A stretch of DNA of 64,000 bases, from positions 22,785-86,784 of the IMG/VR virus record IMGVR_UViG_3300028394_000059. One strand, given 5' to 3'. This document shows positions 9,895-44,718 of the stretch, piece by piece (the stretch's first letter is position 1; each line of letters opens with the position of its first letter). The position numbers were made by a program, and so were the translations under genes. The DNA is from a virus. The notes below the pieces were generated by a model. The model saw only the letters and a list, made by a program, of their open reading frames with translations, was not told where the DNA came from and searched no databases.

Positions 9895-12800
9895 ATGGCA
9901 AACGTAAGACTTAATTTTTTTAACAAGGAGGGTAATCCATTAAACTTCGATTATATCGGACCTACCGGACCAACTCCATTGGATTCTAGATTCACATACA
10001 TCACATCAGTATCAGGCTCTGCCAATGCTGGTGATATACATATTGATGATCCAGTATCGCCATCAACCCAATATTCGATAGAGTTGAATATCAATGATCT
10101 TAATGGATTTGATCTAACTGCATGGGCTAACGAAGCGACGGATTTCATATTAAAAGGTGCTGATGTGTATTTAAGCGGAGAGGTAGCAGGAGGGCAAAAT
10201 TTTAGATGGAAGATATTCTCTACATCTATAAGTAGCGGATCAGTTTATGTTGCTGTCGATGAGGATGATTACGAGGGGCAAAGAATAATAAGTCCAGGGA
10301 ATCAGATATACTTTACAACAGCCTATGATAAAAGACCAGGCGGGCATTTTAAAGGAAATATATATTTTGAACCGGTTTCTTCTGGACTGTATGAGAATGA
10401 GCAGATATTCATAGTACAAGAATTTGATACACCATCAGGTAAGCAATATGGCGTGCCTCAGATAGGAGCAACAGGAGCAACAGGATCTCCTAAATGGAGA
10501 ACAAGATGGGCCAATGATAATTATGGGGAGACTGATGTAAGCGAAATTATATTTACGTATGCAATACAGGATGAGTTACCTGGTGGTGATGGACAGCCTT
10601 TGATAGTCAGCTATCCTAATCTTGTCATCCCTGTCATTAAAGATCCCAACTCATATTATACTAATGGGTATATCTACACAACCATCAATTCATCAGAAGC
10701 AATTGCAATAAACGTTGCTACTAATGCACCGGATGAGGCAGGGAATATCTACGAGAGAAAACTTATAGTTGAAGATATTACAACCGGTACCCCCGAAAAG
10801 GTACTGGAAGTGGATTACTATGCTGAGATTGTTGGTGAGGATGAAAGATTCAGCGTGCTTCTTGAAAATCTTGGTCGTGCATTCTACAAGAGCGACTCCG
10901 TGATACTTAGGGATCATGATCCAGCAGAGCCCAATGCAAACTTTTTAGAGATTAACGAGAAAAGAAAGGAGCTATTAGTTACAGGTGAGGATATATTTCC
11001 GTATATAGGAAGTTATAAGGGTCTTATTAATGCTCTTAAGTTTTTTGGTTATCAGGATTTAAGAATAAAGGAATATTGGCTAAATCTAAACTATAAGAGT
11101 TTAAAATTAGAATCACCATTACAACAGAATCAGACTTTTCTTAATGCAATAAAATCGGAGCAATCAAAGGGGTATAGTCAGAGCTATCAGGTTGGCGACG
11201 TTTTGAATAATGAGAATTCTGGTAAATATAAACTAACACAAACATATGGACCTGATAATAAAGGAAATTATGTTCTTAGTGTTACTTCGGAGGATTCATT
11301 GGTACCTAGCCGGACATATAAGAAAACATCACTATTTGGTCTCTATTACGATCTAAATAAACCTACCGATGGCATAGATGAGTTTGGTTATCCTGTTGTC
11401 GTAGATGCCTTTAAATTCACACAAGAGGAGGTTCTAATAAAGATATTTGCTTTAAAGGAAAGGCTTAAAAGGGATTATCTTCCGCTAAATGCAAGAATAA
11501 TTGATATAACTGGTGAGGGTGTATATTTTAGTATTTATAATACACGTTCTTGGACCGATGTCATGGAAAGATTTGATGTCGAATCGGGATTTTATTTTGA
11601 TTTCTATCCCAATCCGGACATGGGGTTTATAGAGGATCTTAGAAATTTTTCAACAAGGAAGCTATCAACAGGTATACAGACACCAAGCTCGTATAATAAT
11701 TCATATAAGACAGGTGTTGATTTTGTTGGTGGTACTGGTAGCGCTATTTCTTTCTCCAACACATTACCATATGGTGTTACTGGATATAATCCAACAATAA
11801 CATTAACAGCAGGGAATGCATACGAATTTGATGTTATTGATAGTGGTGGATATGGTTATGATTTTATAATAACTACTGACCCATCATTAACTCAAGTTGA
11901 TCCTCTTGGTATATCGAATAACGGTGCAACCGGCGGGTATTCTGTTTCTTGGTATATTGAACCCGAACAAACAACTCCGGTTTATTATTACTCATCCAAC
12001 AACCCGCTATTATTAAAGGGTGTTATTAATGTGCTTACCCCGACAATATCTGATCTCGGGAATATAGTGGATCCGCTGGATGTGCAGCAAAATTATAATT
12101 CTGCTCAGAATACATCCCTTTTAGAGGCTATTAAAAATTTCTATGATCTTAAACAGAATGGTGATATCATAGAACTAGGAGACGATAGATTCGATCCTGT
12201 GGCTTATATTGATCCTAATACGGGTCAACCATATCAGCTTCCAATAGGCATGCCTGTTATACTGGAATTGATATTGGATAAATGGCAATGGAACGAGCTT
12301 AATATCGATTGGAATGCTTTAATAATACCAACATTTAAGGTTGGAGATAGAGTCCAATTTAAGAATCCGGAAGCATTCTATAATGGGCTTTTTGGTACGG
12401 TTGATGCGGTAAGCTATTCAACAGGAACATATTCTGTTATGATCGATCCACCTTATGGCTTTTCCATACCTGTAGGAGAGGCAGAATTATATTCATCTAT
12501 TCAGATTTATAATCTGCTTACTTGGGACGTTATAGATTTTTCCAATATGATGGAGATCGAGTGGATCCTGAATAAATCAGCTACTCAAAACGGAACACCA
12601 TATCACTTTGAATTTAGAGGCCCAATAACGGACTTTTATAAGCTGGCACACTTCTTACCTTACACTGGGAATTATCAGGTCATATGCAACATCTATGATG
12701 CTTTTAATGCTAAGACAACAATAATTAAGAATGGTGTAATTACGGTACAACCAAAGACTGTTGATATTGATTCATGGACAAGATTTAGGGAGGTTGAGAA

Positions 12801-14685
12801 TTATCTATGGGATAACGTTGATAGAGGATGGGGAGATTATGATTCAATTTGGGAATATCCCGCAGAAGGTGAAAGTATAGAAATACTAGAGAAATCAATA
12901 CCCCGAGAAATACTCGATTTCGCAACATATGGTAATAAATCGGAGGAGGGTCAAAGCCTTTATGTTAAAGTCAATACCTCACCAATTGGTGCTACCGGGT
13001 CTATCACATTTACACAGACGGTAACCAATATATCGGAGATATATTCTCTTCAGATAGGGGGTACGGGTTCTTCCATATATGGATATGCCACTATATCCAG
13101 TGCTACCCCACATGGATTGGTTGATGGTGACGAGGTAAATATATCCGGCACTGTATCTCAGCTTAATGGGAGATGGTTAGCTATACTCGATGGGGCAACA
13201 AATACATTTAGAATACCAATAGCTCTAAGCTCATCATTTAATGGGATATTATTGGAGACATCACCTGTTAATAGATATGTTACGGATCCCTTGGTGTATA
13301 CTAATCAGAAATTTGGTGGAGCGGGTAGCATAACTATTTACGCTGGTGGAAGATTAATAGGAAAATCAGAAACTGGTGATATCCTATATAATACTGCCAA
13401 TGAAATAACATCCGCAATAAACTCATTCAGAACATACCCTGATTATTTTGCTTCTTGTTTAAATCCTGCTGCTGATCCTGTTACTGTTACTATATCAGCA
13501 CCAAATGAACTTGGAGCCGATCAGAATGGAGTGTTACTGGGATCAACATTAACGGGTTCGCTAGTAACGGTTTCTGCAGATAGCATATTGTCTAACGGTG
13601 TAAGTCCAGCTGATACCTATGTTTACTGGTCGGAGAATGATCCAGATCAACCCAATGCAAATCTTAAGTATTGGGGAACTAAAAGATTAAACTGGGAGGT
13701 ATTTAATAGTACCACATGGGAAAATGGGTATGCACATAGTTGGTATGATTTTGAGTTTAATAATGATTGGCTGGGCGGATACGAGTTGCATACTCTTGTA
13801 CCAGGAGATCATGTTAAGATCAGCACAGGAAACAGCACATATCCGTATCCTGTTGGTGTTACATTTACGAATGGTTTATCAGGTCTAACGATACAAGAAG
13901 CAGCAGACCAGCTTAATAATTCGGATGAACCCCACATAACAAATTTCTATTATAGACCAATGCCAAGCGATGTTGGAGGTTTAAGTACCACAGCGGGAGC
14001 AGTAAATGTCACTTCTGGTAATCACCTTTTATTTAATGGTTTATTTCAACCACCACCATCATTAATTGGAGGTAGCCAGCTATTGATCCCTGGATTTGGT
14101 TATACTGGAGGTGTACAAATAACAACGTCGACGACAACAACGACAACATCAACATCAACAACATCAACAACGACGACGACAACAATAGCACCAACAACAA
14201 CAACAACATCGACGACATCGACGACAACAATATCACCAACAACAACAACAACAACAACGGCTGCCCCTATTTGTACATTAGCAGGAACTGCTACAATGGT
14301 ATACCCAGCGACAACAACGTCTACGACTACGACTACAACAATAAATCCTGCACTAAGTACAGTAACGATTTATTGGAGAAGAATATCGCTTGTTCTAGGC
14401 GGTGAGTACTTTGGCGTGGAGGTAGATGATGGAACTGGTAATATAATCGCTGTATTTAGTGATGATGCATTTGGTAGTACGACTCTTGTTATGCCAGTTG
14501 GTGGTATTATGGTTGCTTATATTGTTACGGGGCCAGGCTCAGTTGGCAGTTCTATAGTTATATACGACAATTATCCAACAAATAATAGTCAAGTAGCATA
14601 TGCCTCTGGTAGTAGCCCTATAACAGACCCTATTACTTTAGTAGCTGGTAAAACATATTACATAGGAGCAGCTGTAGATGTGTAG
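9895..14685 (+). CDS. Large baseplate wedge protein (gp7/P2 gpI-like) with a mucin-like Thr-rich C-terminal extension
   Basis: YIGSYKGLINALKFFGY (gpI/gp7-like motif), position after gp6, and Thr tracts near the C-terminus. Confidence 0.65.
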   Translation: MANVRLNFFNKEGNPLNFDYIGPTGPTPLDSRFTYITSVSGSANAGDIHIDDPVSPSTQYSIELNINDLNGFDLTAWANEATDFILKGADVYLSGEVAGGQNFRWKIFSTSISSGSVYVAVDEDDYEGQRIISPGNQIYFTTAYDKRPGGHFKGNIYFEPVSSGLYENEQIFIVQEFDTPSGKQYGVPQIGATGATGSPKWRTRWANDNYGETDVSEIIFTYAIQDELPGGDGQPLIVSYPNLVIPVIKDPNSYYTNGYIYTTINSSEAIAINVATNAPDEAGNIYERKLIVEDITTGTPEKVLEVDYYAEIVGEDERFSVLLENLGRAFYKSDSVILRDHDPAEPNANFLEINEKRKELLVTGEDIFPYIGSYKGLINALKFFGYQDLRIKEYWLNLNYKSLKLESPLQQNQTFLNAIKSEQSKGYSQSYQVGDVLNNENSGKYKLTQTYGPDNKGNYVLSVTSEDSLVPSRTYKKTSLFGLYYDLNKPTDGIDEFGYPVVVDAFKFTQEEVLIKIFALKERLKRDYLPLNARIIDITGEGVYFSIYNTRSWTDVMERFDVESGFYFDFYPNPDMGFIEDLRNFSTRKLSTGIQTPSSYNNSYKTGVDFVGGTGSAISFSNTLPYGVTGYNPTITLTAGNAYEFDVIDSGGYGYDFIITTDPSLTQVDPLGISNNGATGGYSVSWYIEPEQTTPVYYYSSNNPLLLKGVINVLTPTISDLGNIVDPLDVQQNYNSAQNTSLLEAIKNFYDLKQNGDIIELGDDRFDPVAYIDPNTGQPYQLPIGMPVILELILDKWQWNELNIDWNALIIPTFKVGDRVQFKNPEAFYNGLFGTVDAVSYSTGTYSVMIDPPYGFSIPVGEAELYSSIQIYNLLTWDVIDFSNMMEIEWILNKSATQNGTPYHFEFRGPITDFYKLAHFLPYTGNYQVICNIYDAFNAKTTIIKNGVITVQPKTVDIDSWTRFREVENYLWDNVDRGWGDYDSIWEYPAEGESIEILEKSIPREILDFATYGNKSEEGQSLYVKVNTSPIGATGSITFTQTVTNISEIYSLQIGGTGSSIYGYATISSATPHGLVDGDEVNISGTVSQLNGRWLAILDGATNTFRIPIALSSSFNGILLETSPVNRYVTDPLVYTNQKFGGAGSITIYAGGRLIGKSETGDILYNTANEITSAINSFRTYPDYFASCLNPAADPVTVTISAPNELGADQNGVLLGSTLTGSLVTVSADSILSNGVSPADTYVYWSENDPDQPNANLKYWGTKRLNWEVFNSTTWENGYAHSWYDFEFNNDWLGGYELHTLVPGDHVKISTGNSTYPYPVGVTFTNGLSGLTIQEAADQLNNSDEPHITNFYYRPMPSDVGGLSTTAGAVNVTSGNHLLFNGLFQPPPSLIGGSQLLIPGFGYTGGVQITTSTTTTTTSTSTTSTTTTTTIAPTTTTTSTTSTTTISPTTTTTTTAAPICTLAGTATMVYPATTTSTTTTTTINPALSTVTIYWRRISLVLGGEYFGVEVDDGTGNIIAVFSDDAFGSTTLVMPVGGIMVAYIVTGPGSVGSSIVIYDNYPTNNSQVAYASGSSPITDPITLVAGKTYYIGAAVDV
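14122..14340 (+). repeat. ACA/ACG-rich trinucleotide tracts encoding poly-Thr/Ser linkers
   Basis: 14122-14259 encodes TTSTTTTTTSTSTTSTTTTTTIAPTTTTTSTTSTTTISPTTTTTTT; 14311-14340 encodes TTTSTTTTTT. Confidence 0.95.
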
Positions 14686-14686
14686 G

Positions 14687-14704
14687 ACCTTAAGAACCTT
14701 AAGA
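14687..14704. repeat. 9-bp tandem duplication ACCTTAAGA x2
   Basis: Seen directly, just after the stop codon at 14685. Confidence 0.85.
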
Positions 14705-14731
14705 TTTAAAATGCAATTTAATTAATAAAAA

Positions 14732-15388
14732 ATGGAAACAGCACTAATAACATTAACAACAGCGGGAGCGGACACGGGTTCTTTTAGTTTATCCTCGAAT
14801 ACAACCGGATTTGCAACCACCTTTGAAAGTGGAATATCTAGAGCATCACTGCTAGCTGGATACACATCCAATTTGGTTCCTCCCGGAACAACAACAATCA
14901 GGGTTAAATCAAATTCGGTTGGTTGCAGTAATTTCGTGGATATAGTTGTTGGTGGAATAACGACCACATCCACAACAACAACAACAACATTACCACCATC
15001 CAATTCATTTCTTACTAATTATTCCATAAACGACATTACCATCAGTTTTCAATTATATGCTAAGGCTGGTAGCTCCTCTTATACCCTCTTTTATGCAACA
15101 CCAGCAGCAGTAACTATCTCGAAGGGAGGAACCTATGGATTTAGTACGTCATATCCCGCAGGTTTAGGAAGCGGGACACGTTCTTTTAAGCTTGTGATAT
15201 CTGCGGGAAGCACAGGAATAGTAGCGAATGTATCAGCGTTCTATCTTAATTCAGATTTGGCCTCAACATCAGTGGTGAAATTTTCTGGTAACACTCCGGC
15301 GGCTGGGGCTTTTCAAGCTGTTAGTGTTGTAGAGGCAGGGGATAGCGTATCATTCATAGATGCATATATCACAACTACATTTGTATAA
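14732..15388 (+). CDS. Putative virion decoration/adhesin protein: two beta domains joined by a poly-Thr linker
   Basis: N-terminal LITLTTAGADTG...TTTIRVKS..C.N domain, TTTSTTTTTT at 14960-14989, and an S/T/G-rich C-terminal domain. Confidence 0.6.
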   Translation: METALITLTTAGADTGSFSLSSNTTGFATTFESGISRASLLAGYTSNLVPPGTTTIRVKSNSVGCSNFVDIVVGGITTTSTTTTTTLPPSNSFLTNYSINDITISFQLYAKAGSSSYTLFYATPAAVTISKGGTYGFSTSYPAGLGSGTRSFKLVISAGSTGIVANVSAFYLNSDLASTSVVKFSGNTPAAGAFQAVSVVEAGDSVSFIDAYITTTFV

Positions 15389-15400
15389 TTTTCATAAAGT

Positions 15401-15429
15401 GGAACAGAACGTATTAATTTCCATATAAT
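15401..15429 (+). promoter_or_regulatory. Putative GGAAC-N18-TATAAT promoter
   Basis: GGAAC at 15401-15405 and TATAAT at 15424-15429, 20 nt before the ATG. Confidence 0.55.
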
Positions 15430-15449
15430 AATCATAAATAAAATTAGAT

Positions 15450-16415
15450 ATGATTAATAAAAAGATGACATTTATATGTGCTCAGCCGGATGTTCCATAT
15501 TTTCACTGGCAGGTTGAGGTGTTCATTCATAGTGCAATGAAATCTGGGATTAATCCAAACTGGATAGAAATCCTATTTGCGTATGACGAAACACCATCTG
15601 ACGAGGGCTTAAAATTAGCTCAGAAATATCCATTTATTAGATTTTTCTTTTACCAGAAAACTGTGAGCGAAAATTATGGATATATTCCTATATTAAGACC
15701 GGACGTTCTGGAACAACACTTCTTTAAATATCCAGAATTGTCTAACGAGATAATATTCTATCATGACTCCGATATAATATTTAGAGAGCTACCCGATTTT
15801 AATTTGCTAAATGATGATGATTTTTGGTATCTCAGCGATACTATTTCTTATATTGGATCCGATTACATAAAAAGTAAATCTGATAAGTTACTCACCGACA
15901 TGTGTAATATAGCTGGTGTTTCTAGAGAACTTGTTGAGGAAAATAATGCAAACTCTGGTGGTGCCCAATATCTTATGAAAGGCATAGATCATCTTTTCTG
16001 GAGAGATGTTAAATTCGTTTCTCTGGATCTTTATAAATATATGCTTGATGCAGAGATGGCAGAGAGACCAACATTAACAGGGGAGGAGCTAAATACATAT
16101 AATCCCATTCAAAAATGGTGTGCTGATATGTGGGCAGTGTTATGGTGTGGACTAAAGACTGGGCATCAGGTCAGGTTATCGCCTGAACTTGGATTCAGCT
16201 GGGGATCTTCATGGGGATGTCATGAATGGAATCTTCATAAAATAATGCATAATGCTGGAGTAACCGACAACATGGGTGGAAGATGTTTCTATAAGGGAGA
16301 TTATATAAACCAACTCCCTTGGGATGTGGATTTTTCTGGGATTGATCCGCAAAGTAACACATACAACTACGTACAGGCAATTCTTTATGCCAAGGTGATG
16401 CGAACACAACTATAA
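15450..16415 (+). CDS. GT-A glycosyltransferase resembling peptidyl-Ser galactosyltransferase/Hyp O-arabinosyltransferase (SGT1/HPAT-like)
   Basis: YFHWQVEVFIHS, YIPILRP, the DxD motif HDSDIIFR and KWCADMWA parallel the recalled SGT1/HPAT motifs YFDWQ...HS, YP..N.P, DAD..R and W..EMY. Confidence 0.7.
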   Translation: MINKKMTFICAQPDVPYFHWQVEVFIHSAMKSGINPNWIEILFAYDETPSDEGLKLAQKYPFIRFFFYQKTVSENYGYIPILRPDVLEQHFFKYPELSNEIIFYHDSDIIFRELPDFNLLNDDDFWYLSDTISYIGSDYIKSKSDKLLTDMCNIAGVSRELVEENNANSGGAQYLMKGIDHLFWRDVKFVSLDLYKYMLDAEMAERPTLTGEELNTYNPIQKWCADMWAVLWCGLKTGHQVRLSPELGFSWGSSWGCHEWNLHKIMHNAGVTDNMGGRCFYKGDYINQLPWDVDFSGIDPQSNTYNYVQAILYAKVMRTQL

Positions 16416-16436
16416 TTTTAAGACCTTCTGATCTGT

Positions 16437-16444
16437 GATATATA
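16437..16444 (+). promoter_or_regulatory. GATATATA putative late promoter
   Basis: Octamer 31 nt before the ATG at 16468. Confidence 0.65.
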
Positions 16445-16467
16445 AGGAAGCAATCAATCATTAAAAA

Positions 16468-18321
16468 ATGGCAGATATTCAGATAGGTGTAAATCAAGGA
16501 GACACAGTTTATTATTTTGATCAAAGTATAGGAAACATAGTCTCCAGGGATTGGCTTTTTATTGGTGGAACACCAACAGGTGGGACATCCTACGGACCTG
16601 CAATAAAGTACAATAGTACGAATGCATTGGGATATAATACCTCACTACTTGTTACCGATGCAGCGGGTGTTACTGGTGCAGCCAATAAAACCAATATAAT
16701 TGTGGTTTATCCTGAGGTTATGACAGCACAAATTACTGCTACACCAAATTCTACCTCGATGGATGTCAACGTTATTTATCAGAGTATTGGGTTAACTGGT
16801 AGTGGATATGCTTCATATAATTGGTCAATACCTGGATTAGGAGCAACATCGGGTTCTTCACTGGACTCCGTTACTGGTCCCTACCCCGATTGGTATACTC
16901 TGACAGGATTATACACTGGACTTCCTGGCTCAACATATATAGGAACTGCAACATTATCGGTAACAAGCAACGTTGGTAATAACGCTAATACAGCAACCAA
17001 TGTTACATTTTATAAATATGGACCCTACGAGGATATAAATTATAATGACAATCCATATTATCCTATAACCGGTCCTTATTACACCTGTAGTGTTTTGAGT
17101 GCCAACTCGACAGCCATAGGTTTAGGTGGTAGTAATGTTGTTCTTAAGATAGATCAGAATGGCAGCCATTCTGGACAGATGTGGGATAACTTATATTTTC
17201 ATTCAACAAATGAGTATTGCAACTATTACCCAAACAATGATGATATACTCCAAAGCCAATACGCAGGGCAAACATTTGGGATTATTTCAACCAAGATTAT
17301 ATTTTCGGGAGCTTCATTAACACTTGCTGGTGCTTCATATACACCTGATTCAAAAATAGATCTTGGAAATTATATTACCACTGGATTTATAAACACAAAC
17401 CTGAACGATACATTTTATATAACGGATTATCCGCAGGGAGGACTATTGACTGGCGCTAAAACGGGAAATAGAGAATGGTCTAATGGTGCTATAAATGAAT
17501 ATATGTCAAATAAATATTATTTAACAACTTCCTCAAAATACATAGAGAACGGTGGATTTACATCAGGAAAAATTCCGAGAGTAAATCTAGCCTCCGTGGA
17601 GGCATCAGTTAATCTTGATGCGGGCTCATATAAGTTTGATGGTGGATATGGAGCGGGAGGAACAGCACACGGACCATGTGTACCTAGCTCTAAATTTTTT
17701 GATGATAAATTTGGTGTTAGTGATATAACCGTGGATGTAACAATACAAATTGCAACTGAAAATGCGGTAGCGTACAGCTTTAATGTTACGCTCTCCGATT
17801 CTGATAGTGCTGGTAATACGCCGGATGTTTGGCTTATTACCGCACAGGATACCGCTTATGGAACTGGTACAGGATTGGTTTCTATATTTAACACGGCTTT
17901 AGGATTAATAGGTAGTACTAATAAATTATCCGATTTTATTGGATTTGAACAGTCCCCGTATTTTGCTGCCTACGAAAACGGTGGTGCTTCAAATAATGCA
18001 GCAAAACAATATGACGCTGCAAATTTTCCGGGCATCAGGTTTTATGTTAAAGACCCTGCAGTTGAAAATACAGGAACAGTTTTAGATTCAGAGAATATAG
18101 CATCTGTTAGTATTAGTTGGGGACCCGGCTGGGCGGCTGGTGTTGAGGGACAAGGTTACTTTACTAGTGACAGAAAATTAACATCAGTATTAGGATCTTT
18201 TAAGAGTGATATTGCTTCCTGGATTTCCTGGCTCGGATTCAAGTCAAATTGTGGACTTCCTTCTTCTTTTGTAACGAAGGCTAATTATTTAAGAGGGTGG
18301 AGAATAGGCGGATCCGTATAA
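16468..18321 (+). CDS. PKD-domain virion protein
   Basis: YYFDQSIGNIVSRDWLFIGGTP...P.IKY...GYNTSLLVTD is a PKD repeat pattern, followed by a second Ig-like unit. Confidence 0.65.
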   Translation: MADIQIGVNQGDTVYYFDQSIGNIVSRDWLFIGGTPTGGTSYGPAIKYNSTNALGYNTSLLVTDAAGVTGAANKTNIIVVYPEVMTAQITATPNSTSMDVNVIYQSIGLTGSGYASYNWSIPGLGATSGSSLDSVTGPYPDWYTLTGLYTGLPGSTYIGTATLSVTSNVGNNANTATNVTFYKYGPYEDINYNDNPYYPITGPYYTCSVLSANSTAIGLGGSNVVLKIDQNGSHSGQMWDNLYFHSTNEYCNYYPNNDDILQSQYAGQTFGIISTKIIFSGASLTLAGASYTPDSKIDLGNYITTGFINTNLNDTFYITDYPQGGLLTGAKTGNREWSNGAINEYMSNKYYLTTSSKYIENGGFTSGKIPRVNLASVEASVNLDAGSYKFDGGYGAGGTAHGPCVPSSKFFDDKFGVSDITVDVTIQIATENAVAYSFNVTLSDSDSAGNTPDVWLITAQDTAYGTGTGLVSIFNTALGLIGSTNKLSDFIGFEQSPYFAAYENGGASNNAAKQYDAANFPGIRFYVKDPAVENTGTVLDSENIASVSISWGPGWAAGVEGQGYFTSDRKLTSVLGSFKSDIASWISWLGFKSNCGLPSSFVTKANYLRGWRIGGSV

Positions 18322-18350
18322 TAAAAACAAAAAGTAAACTAAAGATATAG

Positions 18351-22466: not shown

Positions 22467-22491
22467 TTTCTTAATCCGTTCTTTTTAATTT

Positions 22492-23253
22492 TTATTTGGT
22501 TGTTTTGTAATTATCTTCCCATTCATCGAATGTTTCTTCGATTAATTTCACAATCGGATCTCTAACAATATCATTGATACTAAAGCTCATCGTTCCGATG
22601 TCTTCTTTGTTTTCGAACAGCTTAACTACCAGATCTAATGATGAGAGTTTAGTGTTCTTCATATCGATCTGCTTGGTGTCACCCGTAATGATCATTTTGG
22701 TATCTGTACCGATTCTTGTCATTGTTGATCTCATATTTTTCTGAGTTATATTCTGAGCTTCATCAACAATAATGATTGCGTTGTCTATCGATCTTCCTCT
22801 AATATAAGCTAGCGGTAAAACTTCAATAAATCCCTGATCCAGCATAATCTGAGTTAATCCCTCGCCAATAATTTTTTGAAAGTTATCTAGAAATGAAATG
22901 GTGAATGGCAACATCTTTTCTTTAAGGTCCCCTTTTAGAAATCCAACTTCTTCGCCTTCAAGAACAGTTACACTTTTAACAAGAATTATTTTTTTAAACC
23001 TGGAATCACTTTTTAAAAGTTTTAAAGCCTGAGCACATGCAAGATATGTTTTGCCTGTTCCTGCTGGACCTGCTGCTATTGTTATTTTATTGTCATTTAT
23101 TAGATTCATAAGATTTTTCTGACTTTCATTTTTATACTTATAATCTAGCCTCAATTTCTGCAGATCAAACCTTGACCCATTTTGGTGTTGATGTCCGGAT
23201 GGGAATGTTTCGTAAAACTCTTCGTCAGCGATTCTCTTCTTTCTGTTTGCCAT
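22492..23253 (-). CDS. phoH: PhoH-family ATPase
   Basis: GPAGTGKT Walker A, LAYIRGRSI, VDEAQN, TRIG, GDTKQID and IVRDPIV motifs. Confidence 0.95.
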   Translation of the reverse strand: MANRKKRIADEEFYETFPSGHQHQNGSRFDLQKLRLDYKYKNESQKNLMNLINDNKITIAAGPAGTGKTYLACAQALKLLKSDSRFKKIILVKSVTVLEGEEVGFLKGDLKEKMLPFTISFLDNFQKIIGEGLTQIMLDQGFIEVLPLAYIRGRSIDNAIIIVDEAQNITQKNMRSTMTRIGTDTKMIITGDTKQIDMKNTKLSSLDLVVKLFENKEDIGTMSFSINDIVRDPIVKLIEETFDEWEDNYKTTK

Positions 23254-23454
23254 ATTATTATTTTATTTTTGGGTGGTAATGCTCCGATTTAATACAATTC
23301 GGGTGATTATTGGATTTGTTAAAAAAATTATTGGTATTTTCTGGATTTTTATCGGAATAAATCAATGATTTTGCGCTTAAAGATATATCAATAAAGCGTT
23401 TTTTGTGAGGTTTGATTTTTTGTCCTTCCATATTTAAGTGTTGTCTGTGACGAT

Positions 23455-23462
23455 GATATATA
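23455..23462 (+). promoter_or_regulatory. GATATATA putative late promoter in the divergent phoH intergenic region
   Basis: Octamer 38 nt before the ATG at 23493. Confidence 0.6.
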
Positions 23463-23492
23463 TTTCGCTTTAAAAAACAAATAAAAAGAAAA

Positions 23493-35893: not shown

Positions 35894-35899
35894 AAGAAT

Positions 35900-37447
35900 A
35901 TGCCAAATATCAATATACAGACATTAAACTATACCGATCCTCAATCAGTAGTCATAGATAGATTGAATCATAATTTCGATGAAATCATAGAGGCAAATGG
36001 GGGATCTCAGGGTCTATTTGGACCAACTGGATTTGCTGGTCCTATAGGAGGTAGAGGACCCGTTGGTCCATCAGGATCTGCAGGAATAAGAGGATCGAGG
36101 TGGTACGTTCAGCCAACCACACCACTACAGAGTACCGTCGTAGATGGAGATTTTTGGGTTAATAGTTCATCCGGTGAAATTAATGAATTCTCTGAATCCG
36201 GATGGAATTTTACTGGATATACACTAGCAGCAGACGGAAATATTTTTTTATCCTCTCCATCAACATATACATCGGGTGCTACTGCTGGCTCTTCGATAAT
36301 GCTTGACCGAATATTGCCTGATGATTATCTTTTCGTGGTAGCTGACAAGGTTCCTGAATCCGGGGTTCTTAACGAGAATCTTTCCAAATTTATGATATCA
36401 ACGGATCCCTCCGTAAATGATTCCCCAATACTTGAATTTTCTAGAACTGATCTTGAGAACGGAACAGTTGCTGATTATTCTAAACATCCATTATTCAGAT
36501 GGAAGAATTTTGATGCGGATGATAACTCCGTGATATTTCAAATTCCTGGAGGTGCATTTATTATTGGTGCTTCAGGAGGATTTACCTCCACCTTTAGTAA
36601 TTTAAACGTAGCATCATCTTTATCAACTGACATATTATACGGAGCTACTTCTGGATCCGGAATATATTCAACGGGTGGATTTAATATAAATTCTCCAAGT
36701 GGGCAATTTAATATCATAAGTTCATTCATTAATATTACAGGTGGATCTGGATCTATTTCCGCCCCTGTAAATGCCACTGCAAATTTGGATAGTAATACAT
36801 TATCATCTTATATTTATGCGGGTGGACCAACCGGATCATCCGGTTTAACAACATCCAGAATGAGTGATACGTTTCAAACACTATCTCATTCAGTATACAA
36901 TGTTAGTTTAGAGTCATCCAGTGGGAGGGAATTTTTTATTGATACTAAAGGAAAGGTTAAAACTAATAAATACGAGACCTCAATACAATACGCATCAACT
37001 ACACCTGGTGCAACCAGCGTAATATCGGCTAGGACAGTAAACTGGTATCTCATATCAAGACCAGGAACACCTGTTACGTCATCTGTATTAGAAAATGGTA
37101 ATACCATAGTATTAAATCCATCAGTACCCACAAATACTTATATTGGTGTTGGAATATACAATGGTAACGAATACTCATGGGGAGGGTCTGGAGGACTTGA
37201 TTATGGACAATCAATAGATATAGATGTTCACTTTAGTCCAAATACGGTTCAACCTGGATTTTCTGATGGATTCAGATATATCGGAAAGGGTGCTACCGCA
37301 GGAAATGCAACCAGTGTTATAAATTTACCTTTTGCTGCGGCTACCGTGGAATTTACTGTTGCAAGGGGAGTAACCGGAGGCAATACCTCAGTTTTTTATC
37401 GAGCTTATGGACAAACAGGAGGATCCGGGGGATCTTTTGTTCTTTGA
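35900..37447 (+). CDS. Collagen-containing tail fibre protein (paralog 1)
   Basis: N-terminal ..DRLNHNF, Gly-X-Y run, RGSRW...GDFWVN. Confidence 0.7.
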   Translation: MPNINIQTLNYTDPQSVVIDRLNHNFDEIIEANGGSQGLFGPTGFAGPIGGRGPVGPSGSAGIRGSRWYVQPTTPLQSTVVDGDFWVNSSSGEINEFSESGWNFTGYTLAADGNIFLSSPSTYTSGATAGSSIMLDRILPDDYLFVVADKVPESGVLNENLSKFMISTDPSVNDSPILEFSRTDLENGTVADYSKHPLFRWKNFDADDNSVIFQIPGGAFIIGASGGFTSTFSNLNVASSLSTDILYGATSGSGIYSTGGFNINSPSGQFNIISSFINITGGSGSISAPVNATANLDSNTLSSYIYAGGPTGSSGLTTSRMSDTFQTLSHSVYNVSLESSSGREFFIDTKGKVKTNKYETSIQYASTTPGATSVISARTVNWYLISRPGTPVTSSVLENGNTIVLNPSVPTNTYIGVGIYNGNEYSWGGSGGLDYGQSIDIDVHFSPNTVQPGFSDGFRYIGKGATAGNATSVINLPFAAATVEFTVARGVTGGNTSVFYRAYGQTGGSGGSFVL

Positions 37448-37453
37448 TATATA
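37446..37453 (+). promoter_or_regulatory. GATATATA putative late promoter
   Basis: Overlaps the TGA stop; 38 nt before the ATG at 37484. Confidence 0.6.
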
Positions 37454-37483
37454 CAATAACTAATTAGATCAGTAAAGAGCAAA

Positions 37484-39151
37484 ATGGCAGATTTAAAACT
37501 ATTAAGAATTGAAGATGGCGACTCCCAGTCAAATCTAACAGATAAGGCAAATTATAATTTTGCAAGTCTGCTAACATCTGGAGGTGGACCATATGGAAGA
37601 ATCGGACCCATCGGACCTGATGGTGCTAAAGGCCCAACTGGACCTATTGGATCATATGGTTATTTTGGAGGGAGAGGTACAATATGGACTGTTGGTCCAT
37701 GTCAACCAACCGTGACCTCATCTGTTTCTGGTGATTTTTGGATAAACTCGGAAAACTCAAACTCAGTATATCAATTTGGTAACGGTGCATGGTCATTGTA
37801 TGGATTCAATCTTAAATCTCAGGATCTTTTTTCCATAAAAGGACCGATAACAACATCGGCGGGGTTGTCATCTAGATACGGATATTTTCTGTCATCAAAT
37901 ACCCCAATAAACTATACGGTAGTTATTAGTGATAATAAATCGATGAACAGCGGTACTGTGAGTTCGCCAAATGCTTTTGCAAATCCTCAATACTCCAAAT
38001 TCGTAATAGCAACTAATGGTGCTACTGCGGGTAGAAATATACTTGAATTTAGTAAATTCTCATATTCTGCAAGCCCCGCATTTTCCTCATCAACCCCTAG
38101 ATTTAAATGGCTAGCAACTGGAGCTACTGGAGATGATTACGGACTTGGCTTTAATAGTGCGGGTTCATTAAATATTACCATACCGTCTTCAGATTTGGAA
38201 CTTAGATCCACATCAGAATTTGTATATTTTAACTCCATTGGATTTAATTTCTATATGAATAGCTCGCAGGTATTTACAACAAATTCTACAGGGAATACGG
38301 TCTTTGATTTTGGGAGTGGTGTTGCTAGATTTAGCACAAAAAATATATCATATTCTTCGGGTCAATTTAACATTCCAACATCATTTAATACATATACGCA
38401 AAATACAGATTATGATCCTCCACTATCATTATTAACGTACTCATCTTTGGCAGGAAATCTGAGATATTTGTATAACGCAAAATCAAATGCTGATGCTATT
38501 TTATTCAGAAGCGCACAATCAGGAACAACACTATTTTCTGTTTCTGGTAACGGATATGTTTATATGAATAAAAAAGTTAACTCTATACAACAAGAACAGA
38601 CATTAACACAAACCGTACAATCGATACCACTATCAGCTGGGGTAACCGTAAATTGGACAACAATAACACCATCAATATCAGCAACAACCTCAGCAACAAA
38701 CCTTTTTTATGTAAACAACGGCTCTAATTACGTGATAAAAAAATCACCATCAGCAGCAGCCGGCCAGAGAGGAATTTGCTTATGGACTCCTGCAACGGGA
38801 GGATCTTTTGGTAACAATGGGGGTTGGCTGAATCTTGTAGAGAATGGCGAAGCCATCTCATTCAAGGTTCATAGTGATAATCCGGGATCAACTGGCAGTC
38901 ATTTTAAGTACTTGGGTCTGAACACAACTAACAATCCTTTAGGTTCGCCTAATTCATATGGAGGGTATAATTCAGAAATAAGTGAATTACCAAGTGGTGC
39001 TTCTTCCGTTGAATTTACAATAGTTAATATAACAGGAACAGGTGGAACAAGTGGTACTAAAAGATGGTATAAAGTATATTATTCAGCCTGGGGCGGTGGT
39101 TTAACCGGACATTCCTGTGGAGTACTAACAACATACCCATCAACATCTTAA
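37484..39151 (+). CDS. Collagen-containing tail fibre protein (paralog 2)
   Basis: GDSQSNLTDKANYNF, Gly-X-Y run, RGTIW...GDFWIN. Confidence 0.7.
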   Translation: MADLKLLRIEDGDSQSNLTDKANYNFASLLTSGGGPYGRIGPIGPDGAKGPTGPIGSYGYFGGRGTIWTVGPCQPTVTSSVSGDFWINSENSNSVYQFGNGAWSLYGFNLKSQDLFSIKGPITTSAGLSSRYGYFLSSNTPINYTVVISDNKSMNSGTVSSPNAFANPQYSKFVIATNGATAGRNILEFSKFSYSASPAFSSSTPRFKWLATGATGDDYGLGFNSAGSLNITIPSSDLELRSTSEFVYFNSIGFNFYMNSSQVFTTNSTGNTVFDFGSGVARFSTKNISYSSGQFNIPTSFNTYTQNTDYDPPLSLLTYSSLAGNLRYLYNAKSNADAILFRSAQSGTTLFSVSGNGYVYMNKKVNSIQQEQTLTQTVQSIPLSAGVTVNWTTITPSISATTSATNLFYVNNGSNYVIKKSPSAAAGQRGICLWTPATGGSFGNNGGWLNLVENGEAISFKVHSDNPGSTGSHFKYLGLNTTNNPLGSPNSYGGYNSEISELPSGASSVEFTIVNITGTGGTSGTKRWYKVYYSAWGGGLTGHSCGVLTTYPSTS

Positions 39152-39154
39152 CAT

Positions 39155-41206
39155 ATGCACTTTAACACTAAATATATTTTCCAGGGGGATTCTCAAAAAG
39201 AGATAGGCAGAAAGATCAACTATAATTTTGATCAGATATTATCTTTTGGGGTTGGTCCGAATGGACACATGGGACCTAGAGGTGCTACTGGATTATACGG
39301 ACCTGCTGGATATAGAGGCACCAAGGGTGCAACTGGTATTCGAGCAAATCAGTGGTTTAAACAACCAGCCCAGCCGCTAAGTAGTCAAACAATACCTTAT
39401 GACGTATGGGTTGATAACTCCTCAGGTGATGGTGATATATACACATTTGGTACTACTGGCTCTTGGAATTATAGCGGATATTCATTCTTTAACTCAACCT
39501 ATTTCAAATCGTACTCTGGGATATTAGGTCCTGGTGGATCTACCGAAAAATATGTTATTGGTATTAACGATGCCGGAGGTTCTGATTTGATAAATTTGGT
39601 TATAAATGATGGCGTACTAAATGCTTCTAATTCTAATCCAAATGCATCAAAGGTCGTAGTATCAACAACGGATCAGATAACCAGGCCCATAATGAGTTTC
39701 GGAAAATCGGGAGCGATATCATCGGGTGTACCCTCATTTTTATGGGACAGCATAGGTTCTTCAACCGGTTTAATCTATAGATCAACGGGATCACTAAATA
39801 TAACATCATACCTTGGTCTATCAATAGACTCCGGACTAGCCAGAACGATATTATTCGGTAATAATTCAAATATATCGGCATCTTCATTTTCCATTAGGGG
39901 CAATGGCGATTTTGATTTATATGCAAATACCACAATCGGAAGCGGATCTATATTTAAACTAACATCCAGGAATCTTGTTACAAGTGCAGCATCTTTCACT
40001 CATCAGGGTCCTATGAAAATATCAACCTATCAATCGGGTACATATTCTCTAAATATTTCGCCAACGACTGCATTATTATCAGCTGGTATATTGAACGATG
40101 TTAATGGCTCTGTTACTAATACATTTTCTTTTAATGATCTTACTGGAAACCCAATTTTATCTGGTAAGCCATATGGCCCGATCGGTACTTCCAAGCACGC
40201 TGAAACCATATTTGGATCCACCGGGGGATTAACTGGGGGTACTGCTGGACCATATTCGTATCATGTTAAGAGAGCAGCAATTGTAGCAAAAGTAACCGAG
40301 ACTGTTCAAAATGTTATCCCGTATCCGGCAAAAACTGGAGGTGTCCAAATTTTTAATGTATTTGATTTAACTGCAACCAGCAATTATAATTCAAATGTTA
40401 TAGTAATTAGACCAACATTATATACAGCACCCTCCTCTATTCTCTATGGGGTCTATATTAGAGTTCCGGCATCGGTATCTCAAAATCTACAACCGGTTTA
40501 TGGCACAGATAAAACAAATATTTATAGGATAATGCTTGATGATAGTGATTATTTTATGCAGAAAATTATAGGTGGTATAATCTTTACATTCACAGACTAT
40601 GGTTCGGGAGGTCTAACGTCAACATCATTCCTTACTTCCGTTACACTACCTACACACGGTGGACCAGGTACTGGATGTAAATATATTGATTTGCATTGGA
40701 TAGCATATGCGAATCCTAACAACTCTAACCCTAGACTTTTCTATCGAACTTGCACAGGAATAGGCGGATATGTAGATCTAACCAATTTGGCAACTGTCGG
40801 TGCTGCGACTAGCTCAGTTACTACCGGAGTTTCCTCAGGGTCTTCAACTGGCTCCTCCTTTTTTGGTAAAATCATATGCAATTTATTATATCGCCAAGGA
40901 TACTTACCTAAAGAAATTTGGGAAGCCGATGAGAAATTTGGTAGATTAATGTTTAAAACAAATAAGAAAGGATTGTTTGGTTATTCAACTTGGGCAAAAC
41001 CTGTGGTTAATTTCTTAACTAAAAACCCACAATATTCGAAATATTTCTACTTAATAGTAAAACCTTGGTCTGAACACATGGCTTATAAGATGGGAGTATT
41101 ACCTAAGGATAATAAACTTGGAAAAGTGATACATTATTTTGGTAATAAATTCTCACTTATGGTTTATAAATTAATAGCATACAAAAAAATAAGAAAGAAA
41201 AAATAA
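39155..41206 (+). CDS. Collagen-containing tail fibre protein (paralog 3) with a C-terminal KIIC domain
   Basis: GDSQKEIGRKINYNF, Gly-X-Y run, RANQW...DVWVD; an S/G linker is followed by GKIICNLLYRQG...WEAD..FG...GY..WA.PVV. Confidence 0.7.
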   Translation: MHFNTKYIFQGDSQKEIGRKINYNFDQILSFGVGPNGHMGPRGATGLYGPAGYRGTKGATGIRANQWFKQPAQPLSSQTIPYDVWVDNSSGDGDIYTFGTTGSWNYSGYSFFNSTYFKSYSGILGPGGSTEKYVIGINDAGGSDLINLVINDGVLNASNSNPNASKVVVSTTDQITRPIMSFGKSGAISSGVPSFLWDSIGSSTGLIYRSTGSLNITSYLGLSIDSGLARTILFGNNSNISASSFSIRGNGDFDLYANTTIGSGSIFKLTSRNLVTSAASFTHQGPMKISTYQSGTYSLNISPTTALLSAGILNDVNGSVTNTFSFNDLTGNPILSGKPYGPIGTSKHAETIFGSTGGLTGGTAGPYSYHVKRAAIVAKVTETVQNVIPYPAKTGGVQIFNVFDLTATSNYNSNVIVIRPTLYTAPSSILYGVYIRVPASVSQNLQPVYGTDKTNIYRIMLDDSDYFMQKIIGGIIFTFTDYGSGGLTSTSFLTSVTLPTHGGPGTGCKYIDLHWIAYANPNNSNPRLFYRTCTGIGGYVDLTNLATVGAATSSVTTGVSSGSSTGSSFFGKIICNLLYRQGYLPKEIWEADEKFGRLMFKTNKKGLFGYSTWAKPVVNFLTKNPQYSKYFYLIVKPWSEHMAYKMGVLPKDNKLGKVIHYFGNKFSLMVYKLIAYKKIRKKK

Positions 41207-41268
41207 TTTCGTCGGGATTTTGGAAGCAACAATTAAATAAAATCAGCAAATAAAAAATAAAGATAAAT

Positions 41269-41532
41269 ATGATACAATTATCAGCAGAAGAAAGAGAACA
41301 GATATTAAAATTCTCTAGGGAATTTGTTAATATCCACCAATCGATATTATCGGTTGAAGAAAATATAGCCAAGCTAGAAATAGAGTCATCGAGTCTGATA
41401 TCTCAATTGGAGAAATGCAGGGAAGTTGAAAATGAATTTGTAGAACAGCTGGAAAATAAATACGGTGAGGGAAAGTTAGATCCTATTAATCTAACATGGA
41501 AAAAAGAAATTTTAAATGAAATACATCAATAA
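41269..41532 (+). CDS. Small coiled-coil protein (possible fibre chaperone)
   Basis: 87 aa helical protein ending LENKYGEGKLD; lies after the fibre genes. Confidence 0.55.
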   Translation: MIQLSAEEREQILKFSREFVNIHQSILSVEENIAKLEIESSSLISQLEKCREVENEFVEQLENKYGEGKLDPINLTWKKEILNEIHQ

Positions 41533-42382: not shown

Positions 42383-42390
42383 GATAAAAA

Positions 42391-44718
42391 ATGGCATTTA
42401 CTACATCATCCAAATACGTTCAAATCACTCCATATCTTTTAATGGAGTACATGTATGCTGATCAACCAACACCAGAGACGCATTTTGTTAATACTGGAAG
42501 CGATGTGGTTGGATACGATAAACTGATAAATGGATACAGAAGTAATGCTGTTCAGGTTTTTAATAAATCAGCAAATTATTCAATAACTCATAATACGACA
42601 GAAAATAATGTTGTTAGAATAAATGAAAGCTCGTTCGTTACATTGGATTCGAACCTAATTATACCTTTCAATGATTATTCAGAGGAGCTAACTAATACGA
42701 TTGATTTACCAATAGTATTTCCTTCTAACCTGCTGGTTATGTATGATACTGTTAGATACCATATTAGAGCAGGATATAATCTTGGTAATATAGATGGATT
42801 AATAATGTCGGTTGAGTACCAGGATCAGAATCTTGAATTTGTTACTGCATCACAGATCCTTATTAAAAAAGGGACAGAGCAAGATTATTATCTCAATCCA
42901 AATCCAGTAACAATAGGATCAAATATTTATGACAAATATTTTGAGATAAAGTTGCCAAATCTGAAGGATATGAATGATAAGTATCTTGCAGCTTCTGCAT
43001 TTTTTAAACCAGAAACATTGGCTTCGCTAATTAGTTCAAGTGGTACTGGATTTATATACAGTGCTCCACTTAGAATCACAGCATGGCAAGTACAGGATAC
43101 TGTTGATTATGCTGGATATTTGAGATATAACTGTGCTAGAATAGCTGTTCTTTCGCTAGAGCAGGAGGATCAATTCGCTAATATAGGTGCAACAATCACG
43201 GAGTCGGAGAAAGGTCAATTTTTTGAATATTATGCCACTGATAACGAGGGATTTGTTGAGGATTTTATATTATTTCAGAACTCCCTAGGTAACTCATATT
43301 ATATAAGTCATCAGATAGAGGTTCTTGAGCAGATTGGTGCAGCACTAATACAGACATCTGGTTTTCAATCTATACAAACAACAGCATACGATATGCCAAA
43401 TTACTATAGACCTATAGTTAGAAATGCTGCTGTTTCATCTAGTTTTACACTTAGATACACGATGTCTTTAATAAATAACGCAGATCAGAGTAGAACAATC
43501 AGAATATCTAGTTACACTTCTATTAACCCTGGACAGTGGGGAACGTCAATAACACCTATTAAATTAAGCACATTCCCTCAGGTACAGAAGATTTACAATA
43601 GGGTATACTCTCAGCCAACAATAACAGTTTCAGGAAACACAACAGCATCTCCAAGGGAGATTATTAAATATACCAATGTATTTATAGATCAAAATTACGT
43701 TACATCATCAGTAAACAATCTGAATTTTACTAATAATACTTTAAAAATAGATACCGGGGCTGAACAGATTACCGCACACGGAACTGGTAAGATGACCATA
43801 TCTATATCCCCTTTTGATAATTATTACAAGTTCAGATTTGTTAAAAGTGGACCATCATCGGATCCTATTCCTATTGACTTAAGCAGCTCCGGACAATTTA
43901 ATATATCTTTCGTTGACCCAATCGGTAATAAGATACAAGTACCCGCATTGGACGATAAGAATATAGCAAATCCTGCATCGGGTGAGCTTGCTTTTAAAAT
44001 AGACGAATCAATAGCAACTAAAGTATTACAAATTAATGACAGAAGATTCTTTATTACAAACGGTACATCAATAAATGTAGCAACAAGCACAGCAACTACA
44101 AAGGATGTTGTTTCGGTTAATCCCGGTGTGTCATCGAATGTGCTGGAGAAAAGATTGGAAGCGGTTGTTTCAAAAAGAAGAGCTGAATCAGCTGCTGTTA
44201 AAGGGTCTAATAATTACGTGAGTATACCTGCCAATAATATACTTCTGCCTTCAAATAATTCTAATTCAGTTATGTATTGGGGCTATTGGAAAAAACAAGG
44301 GGAAGCAGATATGGTTACTGGATCAACTGGTGCAACCGCAGCTTCCCTTGTATTATCAAGCAGCAATGTGGGTATTGGAGTAATCGAAGCACCATCATCT
44401 ATAATTAAAAGCTTGGAGCCATTAAGCTCCACATCGGGAATAGGACCAATAGGAGCTGCTGGCGGTCAATCAACACCTTCGCTTGTTGGATCCGCATTAA
44501 TAGCTGCTTTAAGTGCTGAAATGGCTGGATATAAAGCTACTAAATGGGCGGATCAAACTATAATAAACTATTTCTTGATCCCAGGAAAACCCGGTTATCT
44601 AAAATATCCACGATTAACTAAGGATGAGTTTATAAAGGCTGCGAGTGGGATTTTAGCTCCAGCAAGTTTACTTAAAATTAGATTTAGATCCCGCGGATTC
44701 GGAAGAAATCGGAGGTAA
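42391..44718 (+). CDS. Hypothetical structural protein (775 aa)
   Basis: Long ORF in the tail module with an Arg-rich C-terminus. Confidence 0.5.
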   Translation: MAFTTSSKYVQITPYLLMEYMYADQPTPETHFVNTGSDVVGYDKLINGYRSNAVQVFNKSANYSITHNTTENNVVRINESSFVTLDSNLIIPFNDYSEELTNTIDLPIVFPSNLLVMYDTVRYHIRAGYNLGNIDGLIMSVEYQDQNLEFVTASQILIKKGTEQDYYLNPNPVTIGSNIYDKYFEIKLPNLKDMNDKYLAASAFFKPETLASLISSSGTGFIYSAPLRITAWQVQDTVDYAGYLRYNCARIAVLSLEQEDQFANIGATITESEKGQFFEYYATDNEGFVEDFILFQNSLGNSYYISHQIEVLEQIGAALIQTSGFQSIQTTAYDMPNYYRPIVRNAAVSSSFTLRYTMSLINNADQSRTIRISSYTSINPGQWGTSITPIKLSTFPQVQKIYNRVYSQPTITVSGNTTASPREIIKYTNVFIDQNYVTSSVNNLNFTNNTLKIDTGAEQITAHGTGKMTISISPFDNYYKFRFVKSGPSSDPIPIDLSSSGQFNISFVDPIGNKIQVPALDDKNIANPASGELAFKIDESIATKVLQINDRRFFITNGTSINVATSTATTKDVVSVNPGVSSNVLEKRLEAVVSKRRAESAAVKGSNNYVSIPANNILLPSNNSNSVMYWGYWKKQGEADMVTGSTGATAASLVLSSSNVGIGVIEAPSSIIKSLEPLSSTSGIGPIGAAGGQSTPSLVGSALIAALSAEMAGYKATKWADQTIINYFLIPGKPGYLKYPRLTKDEFIKAASGILAPASLLKIRFRSRGFGRNRR

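Follow-up and report, generated by a model that had tools for sequence, protein, structure and literature searches.

To our knowledge, virion glycosylation has been documented for only a few phages. Threonines in the collagen-like G-P-T repeats of Bacillus BclA are O-glycosylated, and SunS and ThuS are peptide glycosyltransferases of the glycocins. The closest described system to the one considered here is that of C. difficile where, in the published account drawn on (PMC7157674), SgtA combines a GT-A domain with four tetratricopeptide repeats (TPRs), is encoded beside bclA3, and attaches N-acetylglucosamine (GlcNAc) through oxygen to threonine in G-P-T repeat peptides of BclA3, with serine accepted too. 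Listeria GmaR, a flagellin GlcNAc transferase, also joins a glycosyltransferase to TPRs in the description given by PMC9638930, and mycobacteriophages encode glycosyltransferases that act in the cytoplasm to glycosylate capsid and tail proteins (Freeman et al. 2023, as relayed by PMC12619734). Here we examine a tetrapeptide, G-x-T-G (also written GxTG or G.TG), that recurs through proteins encoded at positions 9895-44718 of a 64-kb window of viral DNA (64,000 nucleotides, positions 22,785 to 86,784 of IMG/VR virus record IMGVR_UViG_3300028394_000059), and weigh whether it could be a sequon, an acceptor site for a phage-encoded glycosyltransferase. A literature search found no publication on GxTG or a similar short dispersed acceptor motif in phages.

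The window is the final 64 kb of an 86.8-kb record estimated to be 29% complete. Open reading frames (ORFs) upstream of the region match T4-type baseplate families (a gp5-like hub, gp25-like and gp6-like wedge proteins), and the region is therefore predicted to hold the large peripheral baseplate and fibre proteins, stopping ahead of the tail-tube gene; a scan of the region ORFs gave no Pfam or PHROG function for most of the proteins. The copies of the motif here resemble the BclA3 acceptor, as far as the cited account describes it, in that the threonine lies in G-x-T-G in the window's 49 copies as in BclA3. They differ in context: the SgtA substrate is collagen-like, whereas 29 of the 49 copies are isolated and runs of 10-11 triplets occur only in three paralogues. 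On our best reading, selection maintains G-x-T-G, a short motif, in loops of the virion proteins that face outward in a single phage clade.

Within the region, the motif is present far beyond what composition predicts. The initial annotation of this DNA had proposed counting it against shuffled sequences; this count gives 49 copies in 14 ORFs versus 9.0-9.1 expected, and none of 300 within-protein shuffles reaches 49. Shuffling confined to local blocks of 40, 20 or 12 residues raises the expectation to 10.0, 11.3 and 12.6, and again 0/300 shuffles reach 49. Among all patterns of the form a.bc in the region, G.TG ranks first (z 13.8), and seven ORFs individually exceed their own shuffles (at most 0.018 of 500 shuffles reach the count). 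Isolated copies, those lacking a glycine at positions -3 or +6, number 29 versus 7.3 expected (0/500 shuffles), while about 20 of the 49 lie in or adjoin G-x-y triplet runs or one (GGT)n run. All example strings listed by the initial annotation are present in the ORFs to which it assigned them. Its statement that the motif recurs in nearly all tail and baseplate proteins is right as to recurrence but too broad, as 11 of the 14 ORFs carry it; the placement outside collagen runs applies to the isolated copies and fails for the remainder; and its "unrelated folds" apply in part, as ORFs 35900, 37484 and 39155 are paralogues and the other carriers have no BLAST similarity to one another apart from one weak match.

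The excess is specific for threonine and for residue order. G.SG occurs 15 times versus 10.3 expected and G.AG 10 times versus 5.6, and the permuted patterns, each expected about nine times, occur 15 (GT.G), 8 (G.GT), 5 (T.GG), 12 (TG.G) and 10 (GG.T) times. Both glycines are required, with counts of 80 versus 81.5 for G.T[^G] and 95 versus 81.4 for [^G].TG. Residue x is preferentially A, G, V, P or S (G[APVS]TG 29 versus 2.4), hydrophobic residues are favoured at position -1, and the extensions G.TG..G and G.TG.T are enriched, at 14 each versus about one. Other Ser/Thr-Gly motifs in the window give ratios of 1.6 for [ST][GA].T and 0.7 for T.SG, and TSGS occurs three times versus one expected. 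The codons of the motif vary synonymously, with all four glycine and all four threonine codons in use, and the signal therefore operates at the level of protein. This codon usage rules out a DNA-level cause, as does the nature of the one codon bias seen: an excess of ACT at the motif is a general Thr-Gly context effect, common to other Thr-Gly dipeptides (p 0.11 for motif versus other T-G). A hidden common domain is likewise ruled out, since the flanks from -10 to +13 are nearly uninformative beyond the core and BLAST links only the three paralogues and one weak further match.

The enrichment extends across a clade of related phages. Relatives were collected with the conserved 1216-aa protein of 26644-30294 as query (p26644; proteins are named here by the first position of their gene), which serves as clade marker. 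The relatives comprise IMG/VR contigs as long as 434 kb. Further away, p26644 homologues are encoded by Tenacibaculum phages PTm1, PTm5 and pT24, Flavobacterium phage MaF61, Chryseobacterium phages, Sphingomonas phage PAU, Prevotella (Lak-type) records and several uncultured huge phages. The clade is one of giant myoviruses whose hosts are probably Bacteroidota. The "moraphages" of PMC12619734, possibly the same clade, are likewise a freshwater lineage of Bacteroidota and have four core groups of glycosyltransferases; their genomes reach 307 kb, as against 434 kb here. We called the ORFs of the relatives ourselves (ATG start, at least 60 aa, greedy non-overlap), expected counts outside the window are composition products whereas those within it come from shuffles, and related loci and genomes are non-independent samples. 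Across 61 related loci (plus-strand ORFs of at least 150 aa), G.TG occurs 1658 times versus 292 expected, compared with 506 versus 380 for G.SG and 479 occurrences of GT.G. The enrichment is repeated in 57 of the 61 loci, the exceptions being locus L050 and loci L060-L062, which are the most distant.

Complete genomes place the motif on the virion. In G009 (348,582 bp, 414 ORFs), the tail module holds 52 copies versus 8.7 and the bins from 60 to 240 kb hold 11 versus 13.3; in G008, the structural third holds 58 versus 11.5. Five complete relatives were split by homology to the window's record into late-block ORFs and the rest. ORFs homologous to the window's late block contain 279 copies versus 64.8, and the remaining ORFs, minus 21 collagen-like ORFs, contain 92 compared with 83-99 in permuted controls. 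About 21 of these 92 come from tail sheaths. That is to say, the non-virion proteome sits at expectation. In G008, the interval G008:C1:20000-200000 (L194-L202) has 287 non-structural ORFs with no G.TG at all versus 8.6 expected (permuted controls 6-11), a zero that is unreplicated in G009, G011, G013 and G014. Sheath and capsid carry the motif too, with 5-6 copies in the tail sheath (PHROG tail sheath) and three in the capsid protein, each versus about 0.6 expected, all located in variable parts outside the conserved cores. The observation is thus stronger and wider than the initial annotation stated, being clade-wide and extending to capsid and sheath. Its remark that the motif is rare in replication enzymes applies at genome scale in the relatives but not to the window's own record, where the 58 ORFs outside the region hold 11 copies versus 5.0; these include a capsid protein with three, and several of the carriers are probably virion proteins as well.

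Comparable enrichment was not found in other phages with related modules. The outer baseplate and fibres of T4 hold 6 copies versus 4.7, and whole genomes give 11 versus 14.3 (PTm1), 11 versus 10.4 (PAU) and 21 versus 12.3 (MaF61). LR756500, an uncultured 462-kb relative of which 200 kb were counted, gives 22 versus 15.6. By these counts, the enrichment is a general trait neither of T4-type fibres nor of the PTm1/PAU group.

Alignments of orthologues reveal both retention and turnover of sites. In p9895, motif 22 is kept in 34/34 orthologues, motif 612 in 32/34 and motif 677 in 28/34. In p18351, motifs 145 and 368 are kept in 37/37, 614 in 34/37, 1004 in 33/37 and 133 in 32/37, with residue x variable. 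The two motifs of p23493 are kept in 35 and 38 of 41 orthologues and those of p24420 in 40 and 37 of 43. Retention is lower in p16468 (motif 108 in 11/25, the threonine of motif 67 in 13/25) and in p30326, where motif 906 is kept in 30/45 and has serine in place of threonine in 12. Motif threonines are conserved above other threonines, at 0.71 versus 0.43 in the gp7-like protein and 0.60 versus 0.41 in p18351. Over seven families, 22 alignment columns have G.TG in at least 50% of sequences compared with 0-2 in five permuted controls, a further 36 columns have it in 10-50% (controls 4-23), and 122 young columns have it in fewer than 10% (controls 43-82, mean 55). Of the 122 young copies, 92 fall in columns that are alignable in other sequences and therefore arose by substitution, which rules out slippage as the origin of most copies. 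The outgroup locus L050 retains the proteins yet has the motif at 2/9 conserved columns, and the folds therefore do not need it.

To locate the motif in three dimensions, as the initial annotation had also proposed, residues 1-1200 of p18351 were modelled with AlphaFold2 from 49 homologues (mean predicted local distance difference test, pLDDT, 81.4; predicted template-modelling score, pTM, 0.83). At the level of secondary structure, the model places 87% of motif residues in coil compared with 49% of residues overall and 65% of other glycines, and 11 of the 12 motif threonines in coil compared with 48% of other threonines. Five of the 12 copies stand directly ahead of a beta-strand, and 10-residue blocks that contain the motif have a pLDDT of about 72 (hand average), below the 81.4 of the whole model. 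As judged by predicted secondary structure, the motif lies in loops.

A candidate enzyme is encoded in the same phages. One member of glycosyltransferase family 2 (GT2, PF00535) was found in every near-complete clade genome (9/9 records at least 66% complete). The protein has 414-434 aa and begins with a GT2 domain (36.7 bits against a cut-off of 23.3), followed by TPR-like helices whose TPR/ANAPC3 matches fall below cut-off (24.8 versus 27.2 bits). Compared with the PDB, its profile matches GmaR (E 1.3e-8), SunS (1e-6), the GT2-like glycosyltransferase 7msk and designed TPRs (2.4e-5), and its DTGS and DxD segments align with those of GmaR and SunS. The segment IIDADD is invariant in 21 sequences, and the protein is 65-99% identical among the 120 clusters listed of 6488 matches. 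Enzymes at least 61% identical accompany a 5-7x enrichment of G.TG (for example G024, enzyme 61%, 44 versus 6.5), and a sister clade with enzymes 39-50% identical and p26644 about 46% identical has 2.4x (114 versus 46.5). The gene was not found in PTm1, PAU, pT24, MaF61 or LR756500, and a PF00535 search found no GT2 gene at all in PTm1, PAU, pT24 or MaF61. The layout of this core enzyme of the clade relatives is, as far as described architecture goes, the GT-A plus TPR layout attributed to SgtA in PMC7157674. GmaR and SunS, the best PDB profile matches, glycosylate proteins or peptides and bind these substrates through helical or TPR parts; they differ from the clade enzyme in low identity and in their flagellin and bacteriocin substrates, and GmaR, in the description available, has an extra antirepressor domain.

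The sole cultured phage with a clear homologue of this enzyme is Tunturiibacter phage Tunturi_5 (PP885688), whose gp35 is 37% identical over 81%. Its fibre gp29 contains eight collagen-like runs with 110 triplets, 66 of which have threonine at Y, and holds 66 of the 74 GxTG in the 32 structural coding sequences examined. The other 31 have eight copies compared with an expectation of 19.3 and 13-27 in permuted controls, which suggests that GxTG is kept off the other virion proteins of Tunturi_5; a PF04984 search did not find the sheath of this phage. In this phage, which is unrelated to the clade, the nearness of gp35 to a (G-x-T)n fibre recalls sgtA beside bclA3 as PMC7157674 describes it, and differs from the clade itself, where the enzyme gene is distant from its putative substrates. 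At L355:28905-38126, gp35 lies 3.7 kb from gp29, with four paralogous ORFs of about 280 aa (gp30-33) in between. Fibres with (G-x-T)n are present in clade relatives and in Tunturi_5. Two fibre proteins of G009 (L068:7811-10180 and L070:3077-3913) share an N-terminal "MxYRIxxRRD" domain (hyaluronidase/tail-fibre PHROGs), after which one has a (G-[ST]-S)n collagen-like region and the other (G-x-T)n. GT.G reaches counts of 275 in the "rest" ORFs of G011 (L209-L226) and 82 in the "late" ORFs of G014 (L242-L255), which points to G-T-x triplet-repeat proteins, another collagen-like register in the clade.

Taken with the SgtA and BclA3 data, as far as these are set out in the source, G-x-T-G is thus the smallest unit of an acceptor already documented for the GT-A plus TPR architecture. 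By analogy with that system, it may be a sequon for a phage-encoded glycosyltransferase, and we put the chances of this at about even. G-x-T-G would then act as a minimal acceptor site for cytoplasmic O-glycosylation of threonine, and the proposed writer, encoded by the phage, would be a GT2+TPR protein glycosyltransferase akin to SgtA, GmaR and SunS. Point mutations would have scattered a single unit of the collagen-like G-x-T repeat across many virion surfaces that are unrelated to one another, and the outcome would be a virion-wide glycan coat. The initial annotation had proposed such a recognition code for a modifying enzyme; the motif itself, its virion specificity, the gains of sites and the core GT2+TPR enzyme speak for that proposal, while the GT-A gene within the region does not. 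The fuller picture is offered more tentatively, as somewhat short of an even proposition: a whole clade of freshwater giant phages would carry a minimal BclA-type sequon in loops of its capsid and sheath as well as its baseplate and fibre proteins, glycosylated by a core GT2+TPR enzyme resembling SgtA and GmaR, with a coat that is specified by the protein sequence itself and evolves as four-residue sites come and go, like the glycan shields of animal viruses.

Several observations weigh against a sequon written by this enzyme. That an enzyme acts on the motif, that a sugar is attached and that a coat results are steps we infer by correlation and analogy. The link between enzyme and motif is itself a correlation over non-independent genomes in which many other genes are clade-specific too, and our survey of glycosyltransferases was limited to PF00535, PF00534 and the A1 family. 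The window's own record (86.8 kb, 29% complete) yielded no GT2+TPR gene, and in G008, G009, G011, G013 and G014 this gene sits in a conserved non-structural neighbourhood far from its supposed substrates. In G001, the genome of locus L050, a homologue with 30% identity comes without any enrichment. GT.G and TG.G are raised about twofold as well in the sister clade, so that the signal there is partly unspecific. The non-enriched fragment G003 has four other GT2 genes and LR756500 two, and GT2 genes alone therefore do not predict the motif. SgtA accepts serine by the account in PMC7157674, whereas G.SG is barely enriched here, and the pooled count of 92 compared with 83-99 in controls gives no support to a general avoidance of the motif in non-virion proteins.

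A purely structural role would dispense with the enzyme: the motif would be favoured at loops, turns or strand entries, or be left over as one unit of a collagen-like or polyproline II structure, and would stabilise the fibre and baseplate folds of this clade. The coil content of 87%, the five of 12 copies ahead of a beta-strand, the hydrophobic preference at -1 and the 22 conserved columns are all consistent with this, as are the enriched G.TG..G and G.TG.T extensions, the three carriers with true collagen-like runs and the (G-x-T)n fibres of relatives. Such a role leaves unexplained, however, why the motif is restricted to the virion when the roughly 300 non-virion ORFs of each genome show it no more often than expected, why it is absent from the homologous modules of T4, PTm1, PAU and MaF61, and why threonine is strictly preferred over serine. 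It also fits poorly with the loss at 7/9 conserved columns in L050 despite retained proteins, with the roughly twofold excess of young, substitution-born copies in unrelated folds that include capsid and sheath, and with threonine not being the favoured Y residue in the window's collagen-like runs (4/29). We therefore consider a purely structural role unlikely. The sequon is the best available explanation, finely balanced between true and false and provided with a concrete candidate writer, where a structural role explains only the loops and the conserved sites. A reader other than a glycosyltransferase would leave the same signatures of selection, which do not identify the reader, and TPR proteins bind peptides generally; the threonine might instead carry another modification such as phosphorylation, or the loop might dock a decoration protein or chaperone or bind a ligand or host surface. 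We regard this as improbable: the documented biochemistry on the threonine of G-x-T-G is O-glycosylation, on the evidence given in PMC7157674, and the co-distributed enzyme is a glycosyltransferase, while no candidate kinase or decoration protein was found, none having been searched for.

Chance, composition, low complexity or a DNA-level repeat deserves hardly any credence. The carriers are rich in glycine and threonine, and one (GGT)n microsatellite gives six copies, but 0/300 local shuffles reach 49, the permuted patterns sit at expectation, isolated copies stand at 29 versus 7.3, codons vary, and the result is replicated in 57/61 loci. A writer closer at hand might be sought in the neighbouring gene 15450-16415 (phrog_4417), predicted with high confidence (AlphaFold pLDDT 94) to adopt a GT-A fold with a DxD motif (DSD at residues 106-108, D106 and D108 invariant). 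It lies in the tail module, and its best Foldseek matches, which include protein- and glycoprotein-modifying enzymes, are the UGGT catalytic domain (E 1.5e-7, TM 0.43-0.51), WbbM, XXYLT1, Skp1 AgtA and LgtC. No Pfam match was obtained even at E 10, Pfam and PDB sequence searches were uninformative, and an HPAT label in an atlas (10% of one cluster) is unconfirmed. The gene is present in 22/40 loci with at least 8 kb downstream, being missing from the other 18 and from complete genome G009. GxTG in the gp7-like protein is equally enriched with the gene (124 versus 21.3) and without it (116 versus 13.7), and the gene instead tracks poly-Ser/Thr: the longest [ST] run of the gp7-like protein averages 31 residues with it versus five without. 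The GT-A gene is therefore a separate, optional system, and it is very unlikely to be the writer on GxTG. Together with the poly-Ser/Thr end of the gp7-like protein (window 14116-16415), it likely forms an enzyme-substrate cassette apart from GxTG. Such a cassette would be closer to the mycobacteriophage system than GxTG is: as PMC12619734 relays it, the mycobacteriophage glycans sit on the C-terminal ends of capsid and tail-tube subunits, with no dispersed sequon or GT2+TPR enzyme described there.

The region ORFs and their motif load are collected in Table 1. The gp7-like gene follows the gp6-like wedge gene (phrog_219), and the gene that follows 42391-44718, at 44800-45348, matches tail tube phrog_45. 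ORFs 41269 and 41516 have no GxTG. At residues ~34-67, near their N-termini, the three fibre paralogues have 10-11 G-x-y triplets in a row, and seven of their 13 GxTG are isolated; a hand count finds threonine at Y in four of the 29 triplets of the window's collagen-like runs. ORF 35900 matches tail-fibre PHROGs, and beyond the BLAST paralogy of the three there is one weak match between 18351 and 35900 (E 0.001-0.003, 99 aa). Pfam Collagen (PF01391) matches 39155 below the gathering threshold (17.3 versus 27.2 bits) and none of the remaining 15 of the 16 ORFs scanned in the region. The (GGT)n-type run GYTGGTGGTGGTGGTGGTGGS lies at window 33995-34057, residues 1224-1244 of ORF 30326. This run is a private expansion: it faces a gap in 42-43 of the 45 orthologues, while a single GxTG is kept in 41/45.

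Table 1. Region ORFs on the window, with their GxTG content.
Coordinates	Strand	Feature	GxTG content or remark
9895-14685	+	gp7-like large baseplate protein, 1596 aa	9 (7 isolated) vs 1.4 expected, 0/500 shuffles
14732-15388	+	218-aa Thr-rich ORF	1 vs 0.33 expected; unconserved in 5 orthologues
15450-16415	+	GT-A-fold glycosyltransferase-like gene, DSD motif	optional cassette
16468-18321	+	617-aa structural ORF	2 vs 0.8 expected
18351-22466	+	1371-aa beta-propeller-containing tail/baseplate protein	12 vs 1.3 expected
23493-24401	+	302-aa structural ORF	2, conserved
24420-26621	+	733-aa structural ORF	2 (GTTGAYGMTG)
26644-30294	+	1216-aa conserved structural protein, phrog_29329	0 vs 0.5 expected; the exception
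30326-35893	+	1855-aa fibre-like protein	7 vs 0.9 expected; 6 from one (GGT)n run
35900-41206	+	three paralogous fibre proteins (35900-37447, 37484-39151, 39155-41206)	4, 4, 5
42391-44718	+	775-aa structural ORF upstream of tail-tube gene	1 vs 0.23 expected

The N-terminal third of p18351 (window 18351-19400) has a Reg_prop repeat and a BT4663-like propeller that resembles the periplasmic glycan-sensor domains of Bacteroides hybrid two-component systems (BT4663). From this resemblance, the propeller may be a glycan-binding receptor module. Foldseek with the p18351 model returned beta-propeller matches only and was uninformative on the motif, and p18351 had no match in the phage collection. Amid the genes of the tail module, window 22492-23509 has two ORFs on the minus strand, one for a PhoH-like ATPase (E 3e-63) and one of 83 aa. 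Ahead of the region, the ORF at window 5972-7171 has homing-endonuclease PHROG matches at residues 28-278 and a weak head-closure match at residues 329-370, and may be an endonuclease inserted into, or fused to, a structural gene.

Were the motif purely structural, it would still mark the exterior virion proteins of this clade with unusual sharpness and be useful for annotation. The cultured Tunturi_5 offers a direct test system for the pairing of enzyme and substrate and for fibre glycosylation. If G-x-T-G is indeed a sequon, virion glycosylation would become predictable from sequence alone, and a defined pair of enzyme and sequon would be testable with peptides. It would also account for the way in which huge phages adjust properties of their surface, among them adsorption, stickiness, and protection against proteases or grazers.

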